Shown here one piece after another: positions 433 through 5,907 of a stretch of DNA of 6,529 nt. The DNA comes from a virus. Taxonomy: Duplodnaviria > Heunggongvirae > Uroviricota > Caudoviricetes. Below the pieces are notes generated by a model that saw only the letters and a program-made list of their open reading frames with translations, had not been told where the DNA came from and made no database searches. The translations under genes and the position numbers were made by a program. The stretch spans positions 1-6,529 of the IMG/VR virus record IMGVR_UViG_2690316200_000011, one strand, 5' to 3'. Within the stretch, counting starts at the first letter, position 1; every line of letters starts with the position of its first letter.

Positions 433-768
433 ATGAAGTGGATTGTGATTGATACAGTTATCCAGCCATCATGCGGAATATCTTTTTCAGTCATATGGAG
501 TAAAATAAAATTAATAATCTGGTATCAATCGGATGCTTTCTTACCTCCTGAAAGTATATTTACACTGACTCACACAGGCATCATGCTCAATAACAAAGTG
601 CTACCTGTAACCATTTACAACGTAGTACCATTCAATAAAACATTCTGGAATTCAATCAAAAATAGCCAGGAATGCCCTACAAATACAGATAACGTATTGA
701 ATGAATGCTTTAATAACCGTTGCACTCTGCAAATATGTCCTTATGGACTAAAACAACAAAGTCCATAA
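433..768 (+). CDS. Hypothetical protein, 111 aa, AT-rich orphan ORF
   Basis: ORF from the six-frame track. ATG at 433 is preceded by AAGGAAACTAA, a plausible Shine-Dalgarno with good spacing. The sequence is AT-rich and the protein is Cys/Trp/Asn-rich with no recognisable motif, so it may be non-coding. Confidence 0.25.
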
Positions 769-819: not shown

Positions 820-831
820 NNNNNNNNNNNN
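820..831. other. Assembly gap (12 N) of unknown true length
   Basis: Run of n characters. The orfA reading frame is open right up to the gap, so the IS 5' end and the orfA N-terminus lie inside it. Confidence 0.95.
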
Positions 832-832
832 T

Positions 833-1072
833 GAAAATCAACTTTCGATCAGTGAAGGCGCTTCCCGATTATCTCTTCCTGAAGGCACTTTAGGACAATG
901 GGTTACCGCCGCCAGAAAAGGGCTCGGTACTCCTGGTTCCCGCACGGTGGCTGAACTGGAATCTGAAATTCTGCAACTGCGTAAGGCGTTAAATGAAGCT
1001 CGCCTTGAGCGAGATATATTAAAAAAAGCAACAGCGTATTTTGCACAGGAGTCGCTGAAAAATACGCGTTAA
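833..1072 (+). CDS. IS3-family transposase OrfA, partial (N-terminus in gap)
   Basis: The frame is open from the gap to TAA at 1070-1072. The translation ...EGASRLSLPEGTLGQWVTAARKG...ELESEILQLRKALNEARLERDILKKATAYFAQESLKNTR shows the HTH tail and heptad leucine zipper typical of IS3 OrfA proteins. Confidence 0.75.
   Translation, partial: ENQLSISEGASRLSLPEGTLGQWVTAARKGLGTPGSRTVAELESEILQLRKALNEARLERDILKKATAYFAQESLKNTR
1021..1027 (+). other. Programmed -1 ribosomal frameshift heptamer A_AAA_AAA (followed by G) joining orfA to orfB
   Basis: In the orfA frame the codons are TTA AAA AAA GCA. A -1 slip gives ...KKSNSVFCTGVAEKYALIEQWRQQFPIEAMCQVFG..., which is in frame with orfB. This matches the IS3-family OrfAB mechanism. 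Confidence 0.6.
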
Positions 1073-1107
1073 TCGAACAATGGCGACAACAATTTCCCAT
1101 TGAAGCG

Positions 1108-1926
1108 ATGTGTCAGGTATTTGGTGTATCCAGGAGCGGTTATTACAACTGGGTACAGCATGAACCCTCAGACAGAAAACAAAGTGATGAGCGGCTAAAA
1201 CTGGAGATTAAGGTGGCACATATCCGCACTCGCGAAACATATGGAACCCGGCGGCTCCAGACGGAGCTGGCAGAGAATGGCATCATCGTTGGTCGTGACC
1301 GACTGGCACGTCTTCGTAAGGAGCTAAGGCTACGCTGTAAGCAGAAACGCAAGTTCAGAGCGACTACGAACTCGAACCACAATCTGCCAGTTGCGCCAAA
1401 TCTGCTGAACCAGACGTTCGCTCCTACAGCACCAAATCAGGTCTGGGTGGCGGACCTGACGTATGTTGCCACACAGGAGGGATGGTTGTACCTCGCTGGC
1501 ATCAAAGATGTTTATACGTGCGAAATTGTCGGCTACGCCATGGGAGAGCGCATGACAAAAGAGCTGACAGGTAAAGCCCTGTTTATGGCGCTCAGGAGCC
1601 AGCGCCCACCTGCCGGGCTAATCCACCACTCTGATCGAGGTTCACAGTACTGCGCATACGATTACCGGGTCATACAGGAGCAGTCTGGTCTGAAAACATC
1701 AATGTCGCGTAAAGGTAACTGTTACGACAACGCTCCGATGGAAAGCTTCTGGGGAACGCTGAAAAATGAGAGCCTGAGCCACTATCGTTTTAATAACCGG
1801 GATGAAGCCATCTCAGTAATACGGGAATACATTGAGATTTTCTACAATCGTCAGCGTCGTCACTCTCGTCTGGGGAATATCTCCCCGGCAGCCTTCAGGG
1901 AAAAATATCATCAGATGGCTGCTTAA
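1108..1926 (+). CDS. IS3-family transposase OrfB (DDE/integrase catalytic domain); in vivo most likely made as an OrfAB transframe fusion
   Basis: 272-aa ORF. It begins MCQVFGVSRSGYYNW and carries the motifs HSDRGSQY...SMSRKGNCYDNAPMESFWGTLKNE...YNRQRRHSRLGNISP, which are characteristic of IS3-family OrfB. The frame is open upstream of the ATG back to the slippery site. Confidence 0.9.
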   Translation: MCQVFGVSRSGYYNWVQHEPSDRKQSDERLKLEIKVAHIRTRETYGTRRLQTELAENGIIVGRDRLARLRKELRLRCKQKRKFRATTNSNHNLPVAPNLLNQTFAPTAPNQVWVADLTYVATQEGWLYLAGIKDVYTCEIVGYAMGERMTKELTGKALFMALRSQRPPAGLIHHSDRGSQYCAYDYRVIQEQSGLKTSMSRKGNCYDNAPMESFWGTLKNESLSHYRFNNRDEAISVIREYIEIFYNRQRRHSRLGNISPAAFREKYHQMAA

Positions 1927-2150
1927 AAAAAGAACAAATGGTAGTGTCCGCTATTGCCAGTACACCTCAGGATAGCGGTCATGTGATGCCGGTTTCCCGG
2001 TAACTCAGCACCGGTATCTGAGTCAACGTTTTCTCTACTGGGTCATTTCCGATACGCCCTGCCTGCTGACAGGCTTTCATCACATCTGAAAATATAGCAC
2101 CCTGACTGATACTGTAGTACCTAAGGTTCCAGAAACTGTGATGTATCCGG

Positions 2151-2177
2151 CACAGAAAAGCCCCTCCGGAGAGGGCT
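2151..2177 (-). terminator. Putative rho-independent terminator (GC hairpin gcccctc-cgga-gagggc with a T-run on the minus strand)
   Basis: Bulged GC-rich hairpin at 2160-2176. The plus-strand agaaaag immediately 5' gives TTTTCT after the hairpin on the minus strand. Confidence 0.4.
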
Positions 2178-2569
2178 GGAGAGTGGCGCTATGTGCCATT
2201 GCATGATGCCGGGTGCCTCCCGGTGAATTCAGTACCAGCACCTGAATCCGCGATTATCCCATATACCTACTCGCTGATTGCCCCTCCGCACAGGGGGATT
2301 CACCATGCCAGTTTCTTTTAACAAACTCCCCGCAAACCAGACAACAGTCAACCGCCTGAATTGTGAAGTATTTAAAAATTTCTCCCGCTAACTGATACCC
2401 GGCTAACAGTCTGGCGTTTTCTTTTTCAGCAACGGGAAAGCAACAACCACCACACCCGCCACCAGCACACCGTCAGCCAGCACTGACATTATCCGGCTGC
2501 TGCAATGCCATTCACAAAAACAGTAAGCAATCACTTTTTACCGTAACAGGTGATAATCCAGATATGTAT

Positions 2570-2923
2570 CTACCCCAGATGAGTAATCCGAAGTTCATCC
2601 ATACCACAGGTCCTGGCTATTCTGTTGTACTCCTGAACAAGAGCAAATAATTCTGAATTAGCAACCATGAACTCATCGCAAACCCTCTGTATAGCATCAC
2701 TATTCAGAATAATAACGTCTCTTCCCGAAAGACGATCAGGAGTACAGAACAAAACTGTCAAACGGCTGAAGGCCTTTGCTCGTGCTGCATTGACTATATC
2801 AATACGCTGCCTAAGGATGAAACACCCCGACGCCTCATCAATATTCACTCTACCCACACCATATGAATGATAAATATTTAATGCTGAAAAAACCATTAGA
2901 CCGTATAACAAACACTCAATCAA
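2570..2923 (-). CDS. Hypothetical protein (cargo/moron candidate), 117 aa from a TTG start or 108 aa from the ATG at 2894-2896
   Basis: It is the longest ORF in a moderately AT-rich stretch, on the same strand as and directly downstream of the tRNA cluster. The translation is protein-like (…RVNIDEASGCFILRQRIDIVNAARAKAFSRL…ELFALVQEYNRIARTCGMDELRITHLG). There is no convincing RBS for either start and I recognise no family. Confidence 0.5.
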   Translation of the reverse strand: MIECLLYGLMVFSALNIYHSYGVGRVNIDEASGCFILRQRIDIVNAARAKAFSRLTVLFCTPDRLSGRDVIILNSDAIQRVCDEFMVANSELFALVQEYNRIARTCGMDELRITHLG

Positions 2924-3033
2924 TACTTAACAGAACTTTTATTTTTGACAAACATAAAATATTTTCAACAATATCCTGAGCCAGGTATATTTCAGTATAA
3001 GGCTCTGCCGGAAGGAATCTGGAAGAATGAATA

Positions 3034-3110
3034 TGGCGCGCTGTACTGGATTCGAACCAGTGACCGATTGCTTAGAAGGCAATTGCTCTGTCCGGCTGAG
3101 CTAACAACGC
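3034..3110 (-). tRNA. tRNA-Arg (anticodon UCU), phage-type argN-like
   Basis: The minus-strand RNA GCGTTGTTAGCTCAGCCGGACAGAGCAATTGCCTTCTAAGCAATCGGTCACTGGTTCGAATCCAGTACAGCGCGCCA folds as a 77-nt cloverleaf: 7-bp acceptor stem with one G-U pair, D-arm GCTC/GAGC, anticodon loop CTTCTAA, T-loop TTCGAAT, and an encoded CCA. Confidence 0.9.
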
Positions 3111-3123
3111 TGAATACCGATAA

Positions 3124-3203
3124 TGGACCGCCATCGGGGACCCGCCCCCGCACCAACAACCCTGTTATCGTGTCGTCTGCTCTTCCTGATAAGCTAATGG
3201 CGG
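3124..3203 (-). other. Degenerate tRNA-like relic (pseudo-tRNA)
   Basis: The minus-strand RNA is CCGCCAT-TA-GCTT...GAGC-...-CGGGG-GCGGGTC-CCCCG-ATGGCGG-T-CCA. The acceptor stem is perfectly complementary and a D-arm, a T-stem and a 3' CCA are present. No canonical anticodon hairpin can be formed and the T-loop is non-canonical. Confidence 0.3.
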
Positions 3204-3210
3204 TTTGTGA

Positions 3211-3286
3211 TGGTGGCCCTTGCTGGATTTGAACCAGCGACCTGGCGATTATGAGTCGCTCGCTCTCACCACTGAGCTAAAGGGCC
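3211..3286 (-). tRNA. tRNA-Ile2 (anticodon CAU, lysidine-type; ileX/ileZ-like), copy 1
   Basis: The minus-strand RNA GGCCCTTTAGCTCAGTGGTGAGAGCGAGCGACTCATAATCGCCAGGTCGCTGGTTCAAATCCAGCAAGGGCCACCA is a 76-nt cloverleaf with anticodon loop CTCATAA. It is very close to the remembered E. coli tRNA-Ile2 (ileX) sequence, which argues for Ile2 rather than Met. Confidence 0.85.
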
Positions 3287-3321
3287 GGGAGCAGAATAAT
3301 AACGGTCCGTAATTAATTCCN

Positions 3322-3346
3322 CCCATAAGCGCTAACTTAAGGGTTG
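3322..3346. repeat. IS186 left terminal inverted repeat
   Basis: 25-bp perfect inverted match with 4640-4664. Position 3321 is an ambiguous n. Confidence 0.8.
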
Positions 3347-3378
3347 TGGTATTACGCCTGATATGATTTAACGTGCCG

Positions 3379-4491
3379 ATGAATTACTCTCACGATAACT
3401 GGTCAGCAATTCTGGCCCATATTGGTAAGCCCGAAGAACTGGATACTTCGGCACGTAATGCCGGGGCTCTAACCCGCCGCCGCGAAATTCGTGATGCTGC
3501 AACTCTGCTACGTCTGGGGCTGGCTTACGGCCCCGGGGGGATGTCATTACGTGAAGTCACTGCATGGGCTCAGCTCCATGACGTTGCAACATTATCTGAC
3601 GTGGCTCTCCTGAAGCGGCTGCGGAATGCCGCCGACTGGTTTGGCATACTTGCCGCACAAACACTTGCTGTACGCGCCGCAGTTACGGGTTGTACAAGCG
3701 GAAAGAGATTGCGTCTTGTCGATGGAACAGCAATCAGTGCGCCCGGGGGCGGCAGCGCTGAATGGCGACTACATATGGGATATGATCCTCATACCTGTCA
3801 GTTCACTGATTTTGAGCTAACCGACAGCAGAGACGCTGAACGGCTGGACCGATTTGCGCAAACGGCAGACGAGATACGCATTGCTGACCGGGGATTCGGT
3901 TCGCGTCCCGAATGTATCCGCTCACTTGCTTTTGGAGAAGCTGATTATATCGTCCGGGTTCACTGGCGAGGATTGCGCTGGTTAACTGCAGAAGGAATGC
4001 GCTTTGACATGATGGGTTTTCTGCGCGGGCTGGATTGCGGTAAGAACGGTGAAACCACTGTAATGATAGGCAATTCAGGTAATAAAAAAGCCGGAGCTCC
4101 CTTTCCGGCACGTCTCATTGCCGTATCACTTCCTCCCGAAAAAGCATTAATCAGTAAAACCCGACTGCTCAGCGAGAATCGTCGAAAAGGACGAGTAGTT
4201 CAGGCGGAAACGCTGGAAGCAGCGGGCCATGTGCTATTGCTAACATCATTACCGGAAGATGAATATTCAGCAGAGCAAGTGGCTGACTGTTACCGTCTGC
4301 GATGGCAAATTGAACTGGCTTTTAAGCGGCTCAAAAGTTTGCTGCACCTGGATGCTTTGCGTGCAAAGGAACCTGAACTCGCGAAAGCGTGGATATTTGC
4401 TAATCTACTCGCCGCATTTTTAATTGACGACATAATCCAGCCATCGCTGGATTTCCCCCCCAGAAGTGCCGGATCCGAAAAGAAGAACTAA
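3379..4491 (+). CDS. insL: IS186 transposase InsL (IS4-family DDE transposase)
   Basis: The ORF track starts at GTG 3373; the ATG at 3379 gives the 370-aa product MNYSHDNW.... The C-terminal YRLRWQIELAFKRLKS is the Y-R-E signature typical of IS4-family transposases. The ORF is bounded by the inverted repeats. Confidence 0.88.
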   Translation: MNYSHDNWSAILAHIGKPEELDTSARNAGALTRRREIRDAATLLRLGLAYGPGGMSLREVTAWAQLHDVATLSDVALLKRLRNAADWFGILAAQTLAVRAAVTGCTSGKRLRLVDGTAISAPGGGSAEWRLHMGYDPHTCQFTDFELTDSRDAERLDRFAQTADEIRIADRGFGSRPECIRSLAFGEADYIVRVHWRGLRWLTAEGMRFDMMGFLRGLDCGKNGETTVMIGNSGNKKAGAPFPARLIAVSLPPEKALISKTRLLSENRRKGRVVQAETLEAAGHVLLLTSLPEDEYSAEQVADCYRLRWQIELAFKRLKSLLHLDALRAKEPELAKAWIFANLLAAFLIDDIIQPSLDFPPRSAGSEKKN

Positions 4492-4639
4492 CTCGTTGTG
4501 GAGAATAACAAAAATGGTCATCTGGAGCTTACAGGTGGCCATTCGTGGGACAGTATCCCTGACAGCCTACAAAACGCAATTGAAGAACGCGAGGCATCGT
4601 CTTAACGAGGCACCGAGGCGTCGCATTCTTCAGATGGTT

Positions 4640-4664
4640 CAACCCTTAAGTTAGCGCTTATGGG
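4640..4664. repeat. IS186 right terminal inverted repeat
   Basis: Reverse complement of 3322-3346. Confidence 0.8.
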
Positions 4665-4725
4665 ACTTGAACCCCGCGCAGCCAGCTTCGAAGGCTGGCG
4701 CTCTTTCCTGATGAGCTAATGGCGG
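4665..4725 (-). pseudogene. Truncated tRNA-Arg(UCG)-like gene: 5' part retained, 3' T-stem/acceptor strand replaced by IS186
   Basis: The minus-strand RNA is CCGCCAT-TA-GCTC-ATCAGGAAA-GAGC-G-CCAGC-CTTCGAA-GCTGG-CTGCG-CGGGG-TTCAAGT-CCC followed by the IS186 IR. The D-arm, anticodon arm (anticodon TCG) and T-stem/T-loop are canonical; the 3' acceptor strand and CCA are missing. The acceptor 5' strand starting with C is unusual, so the assignment is tentative. Confidence 0.45.
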
Positions 4726-4732
4726 TATGTGA

Positions 4733-4808
4733 TGGTGGCCCTTGCTGGATTTGAACCAGCGACCTGGCGATTATGAGTCGCTCGCTCTCACCACTGAGCT
4801 AAAGGGCC
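4733..4808 (-). tRNA. tRNA-Ile2 (anticodon CAU), copy 2, identical to copy 1
   Basis: 76 nt identical to 3211-3286. The flanks are similar but not identical (several mismatches in the 5' and 3' flanking 30-40 bp). Confidence 0.85.
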
Positions 4809-4848: not shown

Positions 4849-5907
4849 TCATCCGTTCTGGCTGACTAAATCCTGTACTTCCCGAACCGTCTGCTCAAAA
4901 CGTTCAGTCTCCAGCTCAACGCCAATTGCACGACGCCCGAGCGCCAGTGCCGCTTTCACTGTCGAACCCAACCCCATGAAAAAATCTGCAATCAGGTCAC
5001 CCGGACGACTGCTAGCGCTGATTATCTGCTGCAGCATTTCTGCCGGTTTTTCGCACGGATGTTTCCCGGGATAGAACTGCACCGGTTTATGCGTCCACAC
5101 ATCGGTATACGGCACCTGCACCGTCACGCCAAAATACCGCCGCAGATGTTTATATTCACTCAGCAGCTCCGCATACTGCCGGTTCAGTGAGGTATACGTA
5201 TCCACCAGCTGGTGGTGGAGCTTTTCCAGTTCACCACGCCGATGCTTCTCTTCTGCCACCCGGGCAAACAGCGCCTGTAATTTCAGATAATCGCTTTCAT
5301 TCGGCAACTGCCACTGACCGGCACTGAACCAGTGCGACACCATGTTTTTCTTTCCTGTGGCATCTGCAATCTGTTTTGCCGTTATCCCCAGGGCAGCTCG
5401 CGCATCACGAAAGTAAGAAATCAGCGGGGCCATCACATGCTGTTTCAGTGCACTGCCCTTCGCCGCATACCCGGCATCTTTCGGACGATACGGCCCCTGA
5501 TAATGTTCCGCGAACAGAATGCGCTCTGTGGCGGGGAAATACGCCCGCAGGCTTTCCTTGTTGCATCCGTTCCAGCGTCCGGACGGCTTCGCCCAGATAA
5601 TATGGTTCAGCACACTGAAGCGTTCACGCATCATGATTTCGATATCAGATGCCAGGCGATGACCACAGAACAGGTAAAGACTTCCGGCAGGTTTCAGCAC
5701 CCGCCAGAACTGCGCCAGACACTGGTCCAGCCACTTCAGGTAATCATCGTCGCCCTTCCACTGGTTATCCCAGCCCTCAGGCTTCACTTTAAAGTACGGC
5801 GGGTCCGTGACTATCAGGTCAACAGAATTTTCGGGTAACGACCGGATAAATTCCAGGCAGTCGGCGTTGATTAACTCACAACTGGATATTTTTACAGTAT
5901 TAAGCAT
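4849..5907 (-). CDS. DNA N6-adenine methyltransferase, beta-class (YhdJ-like / N6_N4_Mtase family), orphan
   Basis: 352-aa ORF with motif IV near the N-terminus (SVDLIVTDPPY) and motif I near the C-terminus (GDLIADFFMGLGST), preceded by HPCEKP. This order defines beta-class amino-MTases and the layout parallels E. coli YhdJ as I remember it. No restriction endonuclease gene is adjacent. Confidence 0.9.
   Translation of the reverse strand: MLNTVKISSCELINADCLEFIRSLPENSVDLIVTDPPYFKVKPEGWDNQWKGDDDYLKWLDQCLAQFWRVLKPAGSLYLFCGHRLASDIEIMMRERFSVLNHIIWAKPSGRWNGCNKESLRAYFPATERILFAEHYQGPYRPKDAGYAAKGSALKQHVMAPLISYFRDARAALGITAKQIADATGKKNMVSHWFSAGQWQLPNESDYLKLQALFARVAEEKHRRGELEKLHHQLVDTYTSLNRQYAELLSEYKHLRRYFGVTVQVPYTDVWTHKPVQFYPGKHPCEKPAEMLQQIISASSRPGDLIADFFMGLGSTVKAALALGRRAIGVELETERFEQTVREVQDLVSQNG

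Follow-up and report, generated by a model that had tools for sequence, protein, structure and literature searches.

The insertion sequence IS186 is highly specific for targets of the form 5'-GGGG(N6/N7)CCCC-3' and inserts into them in either orientation (Lee et al. 2016, PMC5009759). Among the 59 IS186 insertion sites found in mutation-accumulation lines, 16 had the N7 core, and only 54 occurrences of the motif exist in the K-12 genome (PMC5009759). Table 1 of that report gives 68 insertions and no recombination events for IS186, and its authors state that IS-associated deletions and aberrant insertion events do occur (PMC5009759). Known hot spots of the element are, for example, fimA, menC and the lon promoter (Lee et al. 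2016, PMC5009759; SaiSree et al. 2001, as cited in PMC3045373).

The window, by which we mean the whole stretch of 6,529 nucleotides analysed here, holds an IS186 copy that interrupts a tRNA-Arg(UCG) gene, argN, in its T-arm, and the evidence supports both this interruption and the T-arm being the IS186 target. The ileZ-argN-argO island to which the gene belongs was reportedly first described by Plunkett et al. in 1999 in phage 933W. In the Stx and lambdoid phages the island has the same genes, the same order and the same place, after Q or the methyltransferase gene and before the late and lysis genes, and the part of the window that we call locus A is 99.6-100% identical to intact islands. 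It differs from the Stx-phage island in that argN is interrupted and the prophage is a defective Shigella sonnei remnant, with no stx gene in the window. The element and the motif are the same at argN and at the hot spots of IS186, but in argN, a prophage gene, it is the secondary structure required of a tRNA T-arm that provides the motif. Phages and islands that integrate into tRNA genes likewise place a mobile element in the T-arm or the 3' part of the gene. However, the likeness is in location only, and the mechanisms are unrelated: integrases carry out recombination at an attachment site, after which the 3' end of the tRNA is usually restored, whereas IS186 has a DDE transposase that recognizes G/C runs and destroys the gene. 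Our literature search found no paper linking IS186 with argN, and it returned nothing useful on the combination of ileZ, argN and argO or on IS186 in S. sonnei.

The remnant of argN lies at positions 4663 to 4725, where the minus strand from 4725 to 4663 reads CCGCCATTAGCTCATCAGGAAAGAGCGCCAGCCTTCGAAGCTGGCTGCGCGGGGTTCAAGTCC (63 nt). In order, it comprises the 7-nt 5' strand of the acceptor stem, a D-arm (GCTC/GAGC), an anticodon arm (CCAGC-CTTCGAA-GCTGG) whose loop CTTCGAA gives the anticodon UCG, a 5-nt variable loop, the T-stem strand CGGGG, the T-loop TTCAAGT and two C of the 3' T-stem strand. The gene is cut off after C62 by IS186, and base 4662 is already the first base of the terminal repeat of the element. 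The Rfam tRNA model RF00005 gave the fragment 31.2 bits, above the gathering score of 29, over model positions 7-64 of 71. ARAGORN, which requires a whole cloverleaf, made no tRNA call on the 63 nt; the rest of the 3' T-stem strand, the 3' acceptor strand and the CCA are absent. On folding, the fragment was unable to form the acceptor or T stems, and its free energy was unremarkable (z = -0.44).

The fragment is 100% identical to the start of an intact gene of S. sonnei 53G (L066, 11183-11259), which ARAGORN calls as tRNA-Arg(tcg), Rfam scores at 58.0 bits over its full length, and whose minimum free energy fold is a cloverleaf (z = -2.85). In complete S. sonnei genomes the gene goes on as ...GTCCCCGATGGCGGTCCA. 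The NCBI annotation and GenBank Stx-phage records name it tRNA-Arg or argN; the names ileZ, argN and argO are taken from the records AP012533.1 and NC_049944.1. In the intact locus argN lies between ileZ and argO (tRNA-Arg UCU), and the ileZ-argN-argO synteny downstream of Q or the methyltransferase gene is present in lambdoid prophages. Judged by its sequence, the 63-nt stretch is the start of the argN of a lambdoid ileZ-argN-argO island and not a chance resemblance, because the 63 nt are identical to a gene called as a tRNA by both ARAGORN and Rfam. That the stretch is merely tRNA-like by chance would agree with the missing ARAGORN call, the z of -0.44 and the first base C. However, such an accident has next to no probability given the complete identity to the first 63 nt of a gene called tRNA-Arg by ARAGORN, Rfam (58 bits) and NCBI, the conserved ileZ-argN-argO synteny and a fragment score that passes the Rfam gathering score; the intact S. 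sonnei homologue refutes it.

An earlier note on this DNA had described the fragment as the first roughly 60 nt of a tRNA, from the D-arm to the T-loop, and the 63-nt identity to S. sonnei argN bears this out. It had proposed to abandon the idea if no homologous tRNA existed or if the sequence scored as something other than a tRNA; an intact argN does exist in S. sonnei and is called as tRNA both by ARAGORN, as Arg(tcg), and by Rfam, at 58.0 bits. Its remark that an acceptor stem starting with C was a warning sign was unfounded, since C1 pairs with G72 in the intact gene (CCGCCAT...ATGGCGG-T-CCA).

The IS186 copy, a member of the IS4 family, lies on the plus strand at 3324 to 4662 and was identified by its perfect 23-nt inverted repeats and by the identity of its transposase. 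The repeat arms at 3324-3346 and 4640-4662 are 100% complementary (CATAAGCGCTAACTTAAGGGTTG on the minus strand), and the length between their outer ends is 1339 bp. The transposase gene (3379-4491, plus strand, 370 aa), which is antisense to the tRNAs and to late transcription, is intact; its product is identical to WP_001300563.1, annotated as 'IS4-like element IS421 family transposase' in Escherichia coli Z1323PEC0012 (L001). As a whole, the element is 99.9% identical to the E. coli copies in L001, L035, L050 and L092.

The T-arm of argN reads GGGG-TTCAAGT-CCCC, an N7 site that fits the IS186 target, and it was struck because the four G:C pairs of the T-stem and the 7-nt T-loop spell out this motif. 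The site before insertion is GGGGTTCAAGTCCCC in S. sonnei, and it agrees with the right flank of the element only. Apart from one motif in each IS600 copy, it is the sole GGGG(N6/N7)CCCC of the 21-kb locus A. The IS600 copy in the window has GGGG-AATATCT-CCCC at 1872-1886, and each IS600 is a potential IS186 target; no IS186 insertion in IS600 was seen in the S. sonnei loci fetched. In a scan of a genome collection, all enterobacterial IS186 ends read CTTATG followed by GG-N6/7-CCCC, which agrees with cleavage two bases into each run. Judged from finished genomes, the cuts are placed symmetrically, and with the element taken to extend from CATAAG to CTTATG the duplication measures 10-11 bp. 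The earlier note had held that IS186 cut a tRNA-Arg(UCG)-like gene at its T-arm, on which the intact homologue, the Rfam score and the target rule agree, and that the element prefers a G-run, a spacer and a C-run, with the T-arm as such a sequence; the published motif GGGG(N6/N7)CCCC (PMC5009759) is of just this form.

The right junction reads ...GGGGTTCAAGTCC (argN) joined to CATAAGCGC... (IS186). We are very confident that it is real, because it contains no N, its two partners share only GGG, and it matches a finished genome base for base. It might instead be an assembly chimera, in which argN is intact and an IS186 contig was wrongly attached to it, and it is true that the window is evidently a gapped scaffold and that IS186 is a repeat. 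However, an overlap of GGG between the end of the element and the T-arm is too little for a false join, no N stands at the junction, and the break point is exactly that of L001 and falls where the published target rule predicts, so that a chimera at this point is very improbable.

The same hit was found in other genomes. Among 5426 complete E. coli genomes, ten have a junction of IS186 with the 5' part of the tRNA like that of the window, and seven have both junctions. In E. coli Z1323PEC0012 (L001), IS186 lies in argN and is followed by an 11-bp duplication, GGTTCAAGTCC, then by CCGATGGCGGTCCA and argO; its break point is that of the window base for base, and its argN allele differs from that of the window at 4 of 63 nt. 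In 14EC017 (L002) and TUM2805 (L092), the element lies in a decayed argN paralogue, whose T-arm remnant is GGGG-GCGGGT-CCCC (N6), with a 10-bp duplication, GGGCGGGTCC. These three carry the same IS186 in the same orientation and T-arm position as the window, but they are complete simple insertions with both halves of the gene and an 11-bp (argN) or 10-bp (decayed argN) duplication, whereas the window has the 5' half only. Complete S. sonnei genomes have an otherwise identical locus A in which argN is intact. This, together with the different allele in L001, indicates that the insertion in the window is recent and independent of the other cases. Counted conservatively, the T-arm has been hit independently three times. 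The transposase is antisense to the tRNA in four of four contexts (the window, L001, L002 and L092), too few to establish a bias, whereas at the hot spots of Lee et al. both orientations occur at one site. The decayed argN of the window has its own T-arm remnant at 3136-3149 (GGGG-ACCCGC-CCCC on the plus strand, N6), an intact IS186 target that is empty here and that holds IS186 with a 10-bp duplication in E. coli 14EC017, 2013C-4991, TUM2805 and others. A search of viral and metagenome contigs for IS186 at the same position in any tRNA T-loop (GGTTCNANNCC followed by CATAAG...) gave no match.

The scan of genome contigs also returned IS186-like sequences elsewhere. Fragments 99.6-100% identical to the IS186 of E. 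coli occurred on contigs of 210 bp to 2.3 kb (L010, L022, L039, L044, L046, L049, L053 and L058) in assemblies labelled Marinobacter, Prevotella MAG, Kocuria, Bradyrhizobium, Aerococcus MAG, Streptosporangium, Enhygromyxa and Corallococcus. Some of them had flanks of the E. coli K-12 type, and the fragments are most likely contamination by E. coli DNA. Another group (those among L005-L061 from Acidobacteriota, Anaerolineae STL-CHL21 with about 10 copies, Terriglobia, Desulfobacterales and other MAGs) matched 21 nt of the IS186 terminal repeat exactly and had no further nucleotide similarity to IS186 by blastn on these contigs. Their flanks were often GG-N-CC-like, e.g. GGCCTCGTGCC, and they may be distant elements of the IS186 group with a common terminal repeat.

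The left side of the element is different. A single N stands at 3321, 3 nt outside the left end of IS186, where the IS186-bearing sequence joins a second locus, locus B. The left flank, GGnGGAATTAATTAC, is without the C run of the IS186 target, unlike all enterobacterial flanks examined. On the minus strand the sequence beyond this end is CTTATG-GGnGGAATTAATTACGG..., and a second ileZ, a decayed argN and an argO then follow. The earlier note had overlooked the N, this second cluster and the fact that the left flank is not argN. A simple insertion into locus A would be expected to continue after the element as ...CTTATG followed by GGTTCAAGTCCCCGATGGCGGTCCATTATCTGCATCATGCG, with the argN 3' end GGTTCAAGTCCCCGATGGCGGTCCATTATCTGC and the A-specific spacer and argO (TTATCTGCATCATGCG...ACGCGCCACACTT); a real fusion of loci A and B would be expected to have ...CTTATGG joined to GCGGAATTAATTACGGACC, the leader sequence of locus B being GCGGAATTAATTACGG. 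The target duplication, the locus A argN 3' end (CCGATGGCGGTCCA) and the locus A argO are all missing from the window. The left junction is absent from all 5426 complete E. coli genomes, and the window junction is absent from the 57 loci matched by an exact-pattern scan of genome contigs with an IS186 end. Neither of the two window junctions had a match in the scans of viral contigs and metagenome contigs, and no open reading frame of at least 20 aa runs across either of them. We rejected a second genuine IS186 target upstream of the locus B ileZ as the origin of the left flank; the native sequence there, ...GGGTTTTTTATTGCGGAATTAATT, is without the GGGG...CCCC motif.

The island of locus B lies on the minus strand at 3034 to 3320 and consists of a leader (3287-3320), ileZ (3211-3286), a decayed argN (psi-argN, 3121-3203) and argO, tRNA-Arg(UCU) (3034-3110); between the terminator and ileZ the locus reads TTTTTTATTGCGGAATT. 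In S. sonnei the order of locus B is Q_B, terminator, leader, ileZ, psi-argN, argO, ..., iraM and IS600. Window positions 3020-3320 are 100% identical to a prophage of E. coli 042, and an island of this type, with decayed argN, is present in about 2080 of the 5426 complete E. coli genomes. The psi-argN (83 nt, 3203-3121, minus strand) keeps the acceptor stem CCGCCAT/ATGGCGG, the D-arm, the T-stem and the 3' CCA, and has an irregular hairpin in place of the anticodon arm and a 6-nt T-loop, GCGGGT. Neither ARAGORN nor Rfam calls it, and the region 3020-3320 that includes it is 100% identical in many of the roughly 2080 complete genomes that hold it; it may be dead as a gene, or its product may be a tRNA-like RNA that serves some other purpose. 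It is not the missing 3' half of the cut argN, being a complete and separate element of locus B. The locus B sequence also contains, at 433-768 (plus strand), a 111-aa open reading frame with a PmrD domain (PF11183); its annotation in E. coli 042 and TUM2805 is anti-adapter protein IraM.

The window is a patchwork of the two loci. Locus A is a defective lambdoid prophage that adjoins ompW in complete S. sonnei genomes (e.g. 53G, HE616528.1) and is riddled with IS600 and IS1. It accounts with 100% identity for positions 6529-4662, including ileZ upstream of argN (4733-4808, minus strand; Met(CAT) by ARAGORN, tRNA-Ile by NCBI) and the gene of a DNA N6/N4 methyltransferase (4849-5907, minus strand). 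Next come IS186 (4662-3324), locus B (3320-2207, 100% identical to S. sonnei L083) and again locus A (2336-1969, 100%), which runs into IS600 (1971-832) at locus A's own insertion site. Twelve N follow (831-820), and locus B sequence (819-1) then ends in 46 nt of IS600. The change from B on the right side to A on the left side falls at 2207-2336, in a stretch of 130 bp that mismatch maps show to be identical in loci A and B of S. sonnei and that lies inside an STnc100-like sRNA gene. Positions 2148-2337 (minus strand), just downstream of the tRNA island, match the Rfam STnc100 sRNA with 122.5 bits (E = 2.5e-27), and a weak second match at 1921-2109 (21.8 bits) is below threshold.

At the gap (820-1971, plus strand, for the gap and the IS600 copy together), the IS600 copy at 832-1971 is without its first ~124 nt, which rules out that the N at 820-831 mask real bases; in complete genomes the counterpart of 2177 comes directly after 819. 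Bases 817-819, at the edge of the gap, are unlike every reference and form a perfect palindrome, CCCCTCCGGAGGGG, which looks like a contig-end error. Both ends of the window lie within repeats, with the final 46 nt of IS600 (repeat D2) at positions 1-46. At the Q terminator, loci A and B share an exact repeat of 63 nt, and the end of the locus B piece at 3320 is 3 nt away from it; other exact repeats common to both loci, one of 87 nt (ileZ) and one of 69 nt (argO), are found close by. In S. sonnei CP104423.1, loci A and B are about 0.67 Mb apart and, by our reading, in direct orientation.

Taken as a whole, an IS186 insertion in argN of an S. sonnei-type locus A, with the left flank as a scaffold artefact, is the explanation that we consider moderately probable. 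The insertion itself is highly probable, and for the artefact on the left side we have, by inference, reasonable but lesser confidence. According to this explanation, an intact IS186 would have transposed into argN, in the island just downstream of the Q antiterminator and methyltransferase genes of locus A. By analogy with the finished genomes, it would have cut two bases inside each run and duplicated GGTTCAAGTCC, and the gene, split after C62, would give no tRNA that could be folded or processed. The element would actually be followed, in the genome, by the duplication, the argN 3' end (CCGATGGCGGTCCA) and then argO. The window would be a short-read scaffold in which the paralogous loci A and B were strung together around the repeats that they share. 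This would account for the N at 3321, the A/B switch in the 130-bp repeat, the 12-N gap and the left flank that is not a target, and the order of left arm A, left arm B, shared repeat, right arm A and right arm B would be that of a scaffolder linearising a two-copy repeat. Two of the three locus switches are at N runs and the third is inside the 130-bp exact repeat. The scaffolder SSPACE writes a single 'n' when it joins contigs on read pairs with a negative gap estimate and finds no overlap.

However, some observations speak against the artefact. The locus B piece stops 3 nt before the 63-nt repeat, although k-1 bases of the repeat would normally be expected at the end of a de Bruijn contig, and the artefact model does not fully explain this. 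The assembler was able to span some repeats, since both copies of the 87-nt ileZ repeat are correctly resolved in this scaffold. In addition, the arrangement of 1975-3320 is contiguous and natural in two E. coli prophages (H76 and H77; 99.3%), so that a real mosaic is, in principle, a possible source of the A/B switch at 2207-2336.

Alternatively, the window may be taken as true to the genome. An IS186-associated deletion or illegitimate recombination, together with an exchange in the 130-bp repeat, would then have swapped the argN 3' end and argO of locus A for the patch of locus B, leaving a hybrid prophage with two ileZ in which the 3' half of argN was truly lost. The window as given reads in this way, natural prophages with a contiguous 1975-3320 exist, and Shigella genomes are rich in IS-mediated rearrangement. 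IS-associated deletions and aberrant insertions are also mentioned by Lee et al. (PMC5009759). We nevertheless regard a true fusion as unlikely. Within 6.5 kb, two or three rare events would have had to occur separately, each at an N run or an exact repeat; base 3321 at the junction is N, and the left flank has no target motif. The junction is absent from complete E. coli genomes, and an IS600 124 nt short that abuts locus B was not seen in the S. sonnei complete-genome loci examined. A reciprocal exchange between the directly oriented loci A and B would delete about 0.67 Mb (CP104423.1), and for IS186 Lee et al. counted 68 insertions against no recombination events (PMC5009759, Table 1). The claim of the earlier note that the 3' acceptor strand and CCA were replaced by the IS is correct for the window and probably not for the genome. 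On insertion IS186 duplicates its target and both halves of the gene are retained, as in L001; their absence here coincides with an N and a switch to the paralogous locus, and a scaffold artefact or a secondary rearrangement is the likely cause.

At this locus argN is inactivated, since neither an acceptor stem nor a T stem can form from its 5' fragment. The earlier note had also concluded that a decoder of CGA/CGG codons was lost from the phage tRNA set. This is plausible for the prophage's own set, in which argN is predicted to read these codons, though the effect of the loss is probably small because the host has its own CGA/CGG decoders, the prophage is riddled with IS elements and decayed argN is widespread. 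In E. coli, CGA is read by the tRNA-Arg with inosine-34 (argQVYZ) and CGG by argX. The presence of the decayed-argN island in about 2080 of 5426 genomes suggests that argN is often dispensable.

IS186 also separates the Q-dependent promoter region from the genes downstream by 1.3 kb of DNA in antisense orientation. A more ambitious reading would make the T-arm of prophage argN and of its decayed paralogue a landing pad to which IS186 returns repeatedly and perhaps under selection. With the Q-dependent late promoter on one side and the late genes on the other, insertions at this site would help to silence or domesticate lambdoid prophages; here IS186 would, in addition, have joined two prophages into one hybrid whose tRNA island is duplicated. 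We find this reading quite improbable. IS186 is common in E. coli and Shigella. The element, the target motif and the tRNA island are all known, and the insertion is an ordinary one, of low significance beyond annotation. As a caution for the reading of such records, a short-read scaffold that interleaves paralogous prophages can mimic gene truncation or prophage fusion.

As examined S. sonnei complete genomes have argN intact at this place, IS186 in argN is a possible lineage marker. That a prophage tRNA T-arm is a recurrent IS186 site follows directly from the published motif. The constraint on a tRNA T-arm, with its G:C-rich 5-bp stem and 7-nt loop, can by itself create the rare GGGG(N7)CCCC, and this makes particular prophage tRNA genes predictable and recurrent targets of IS186.
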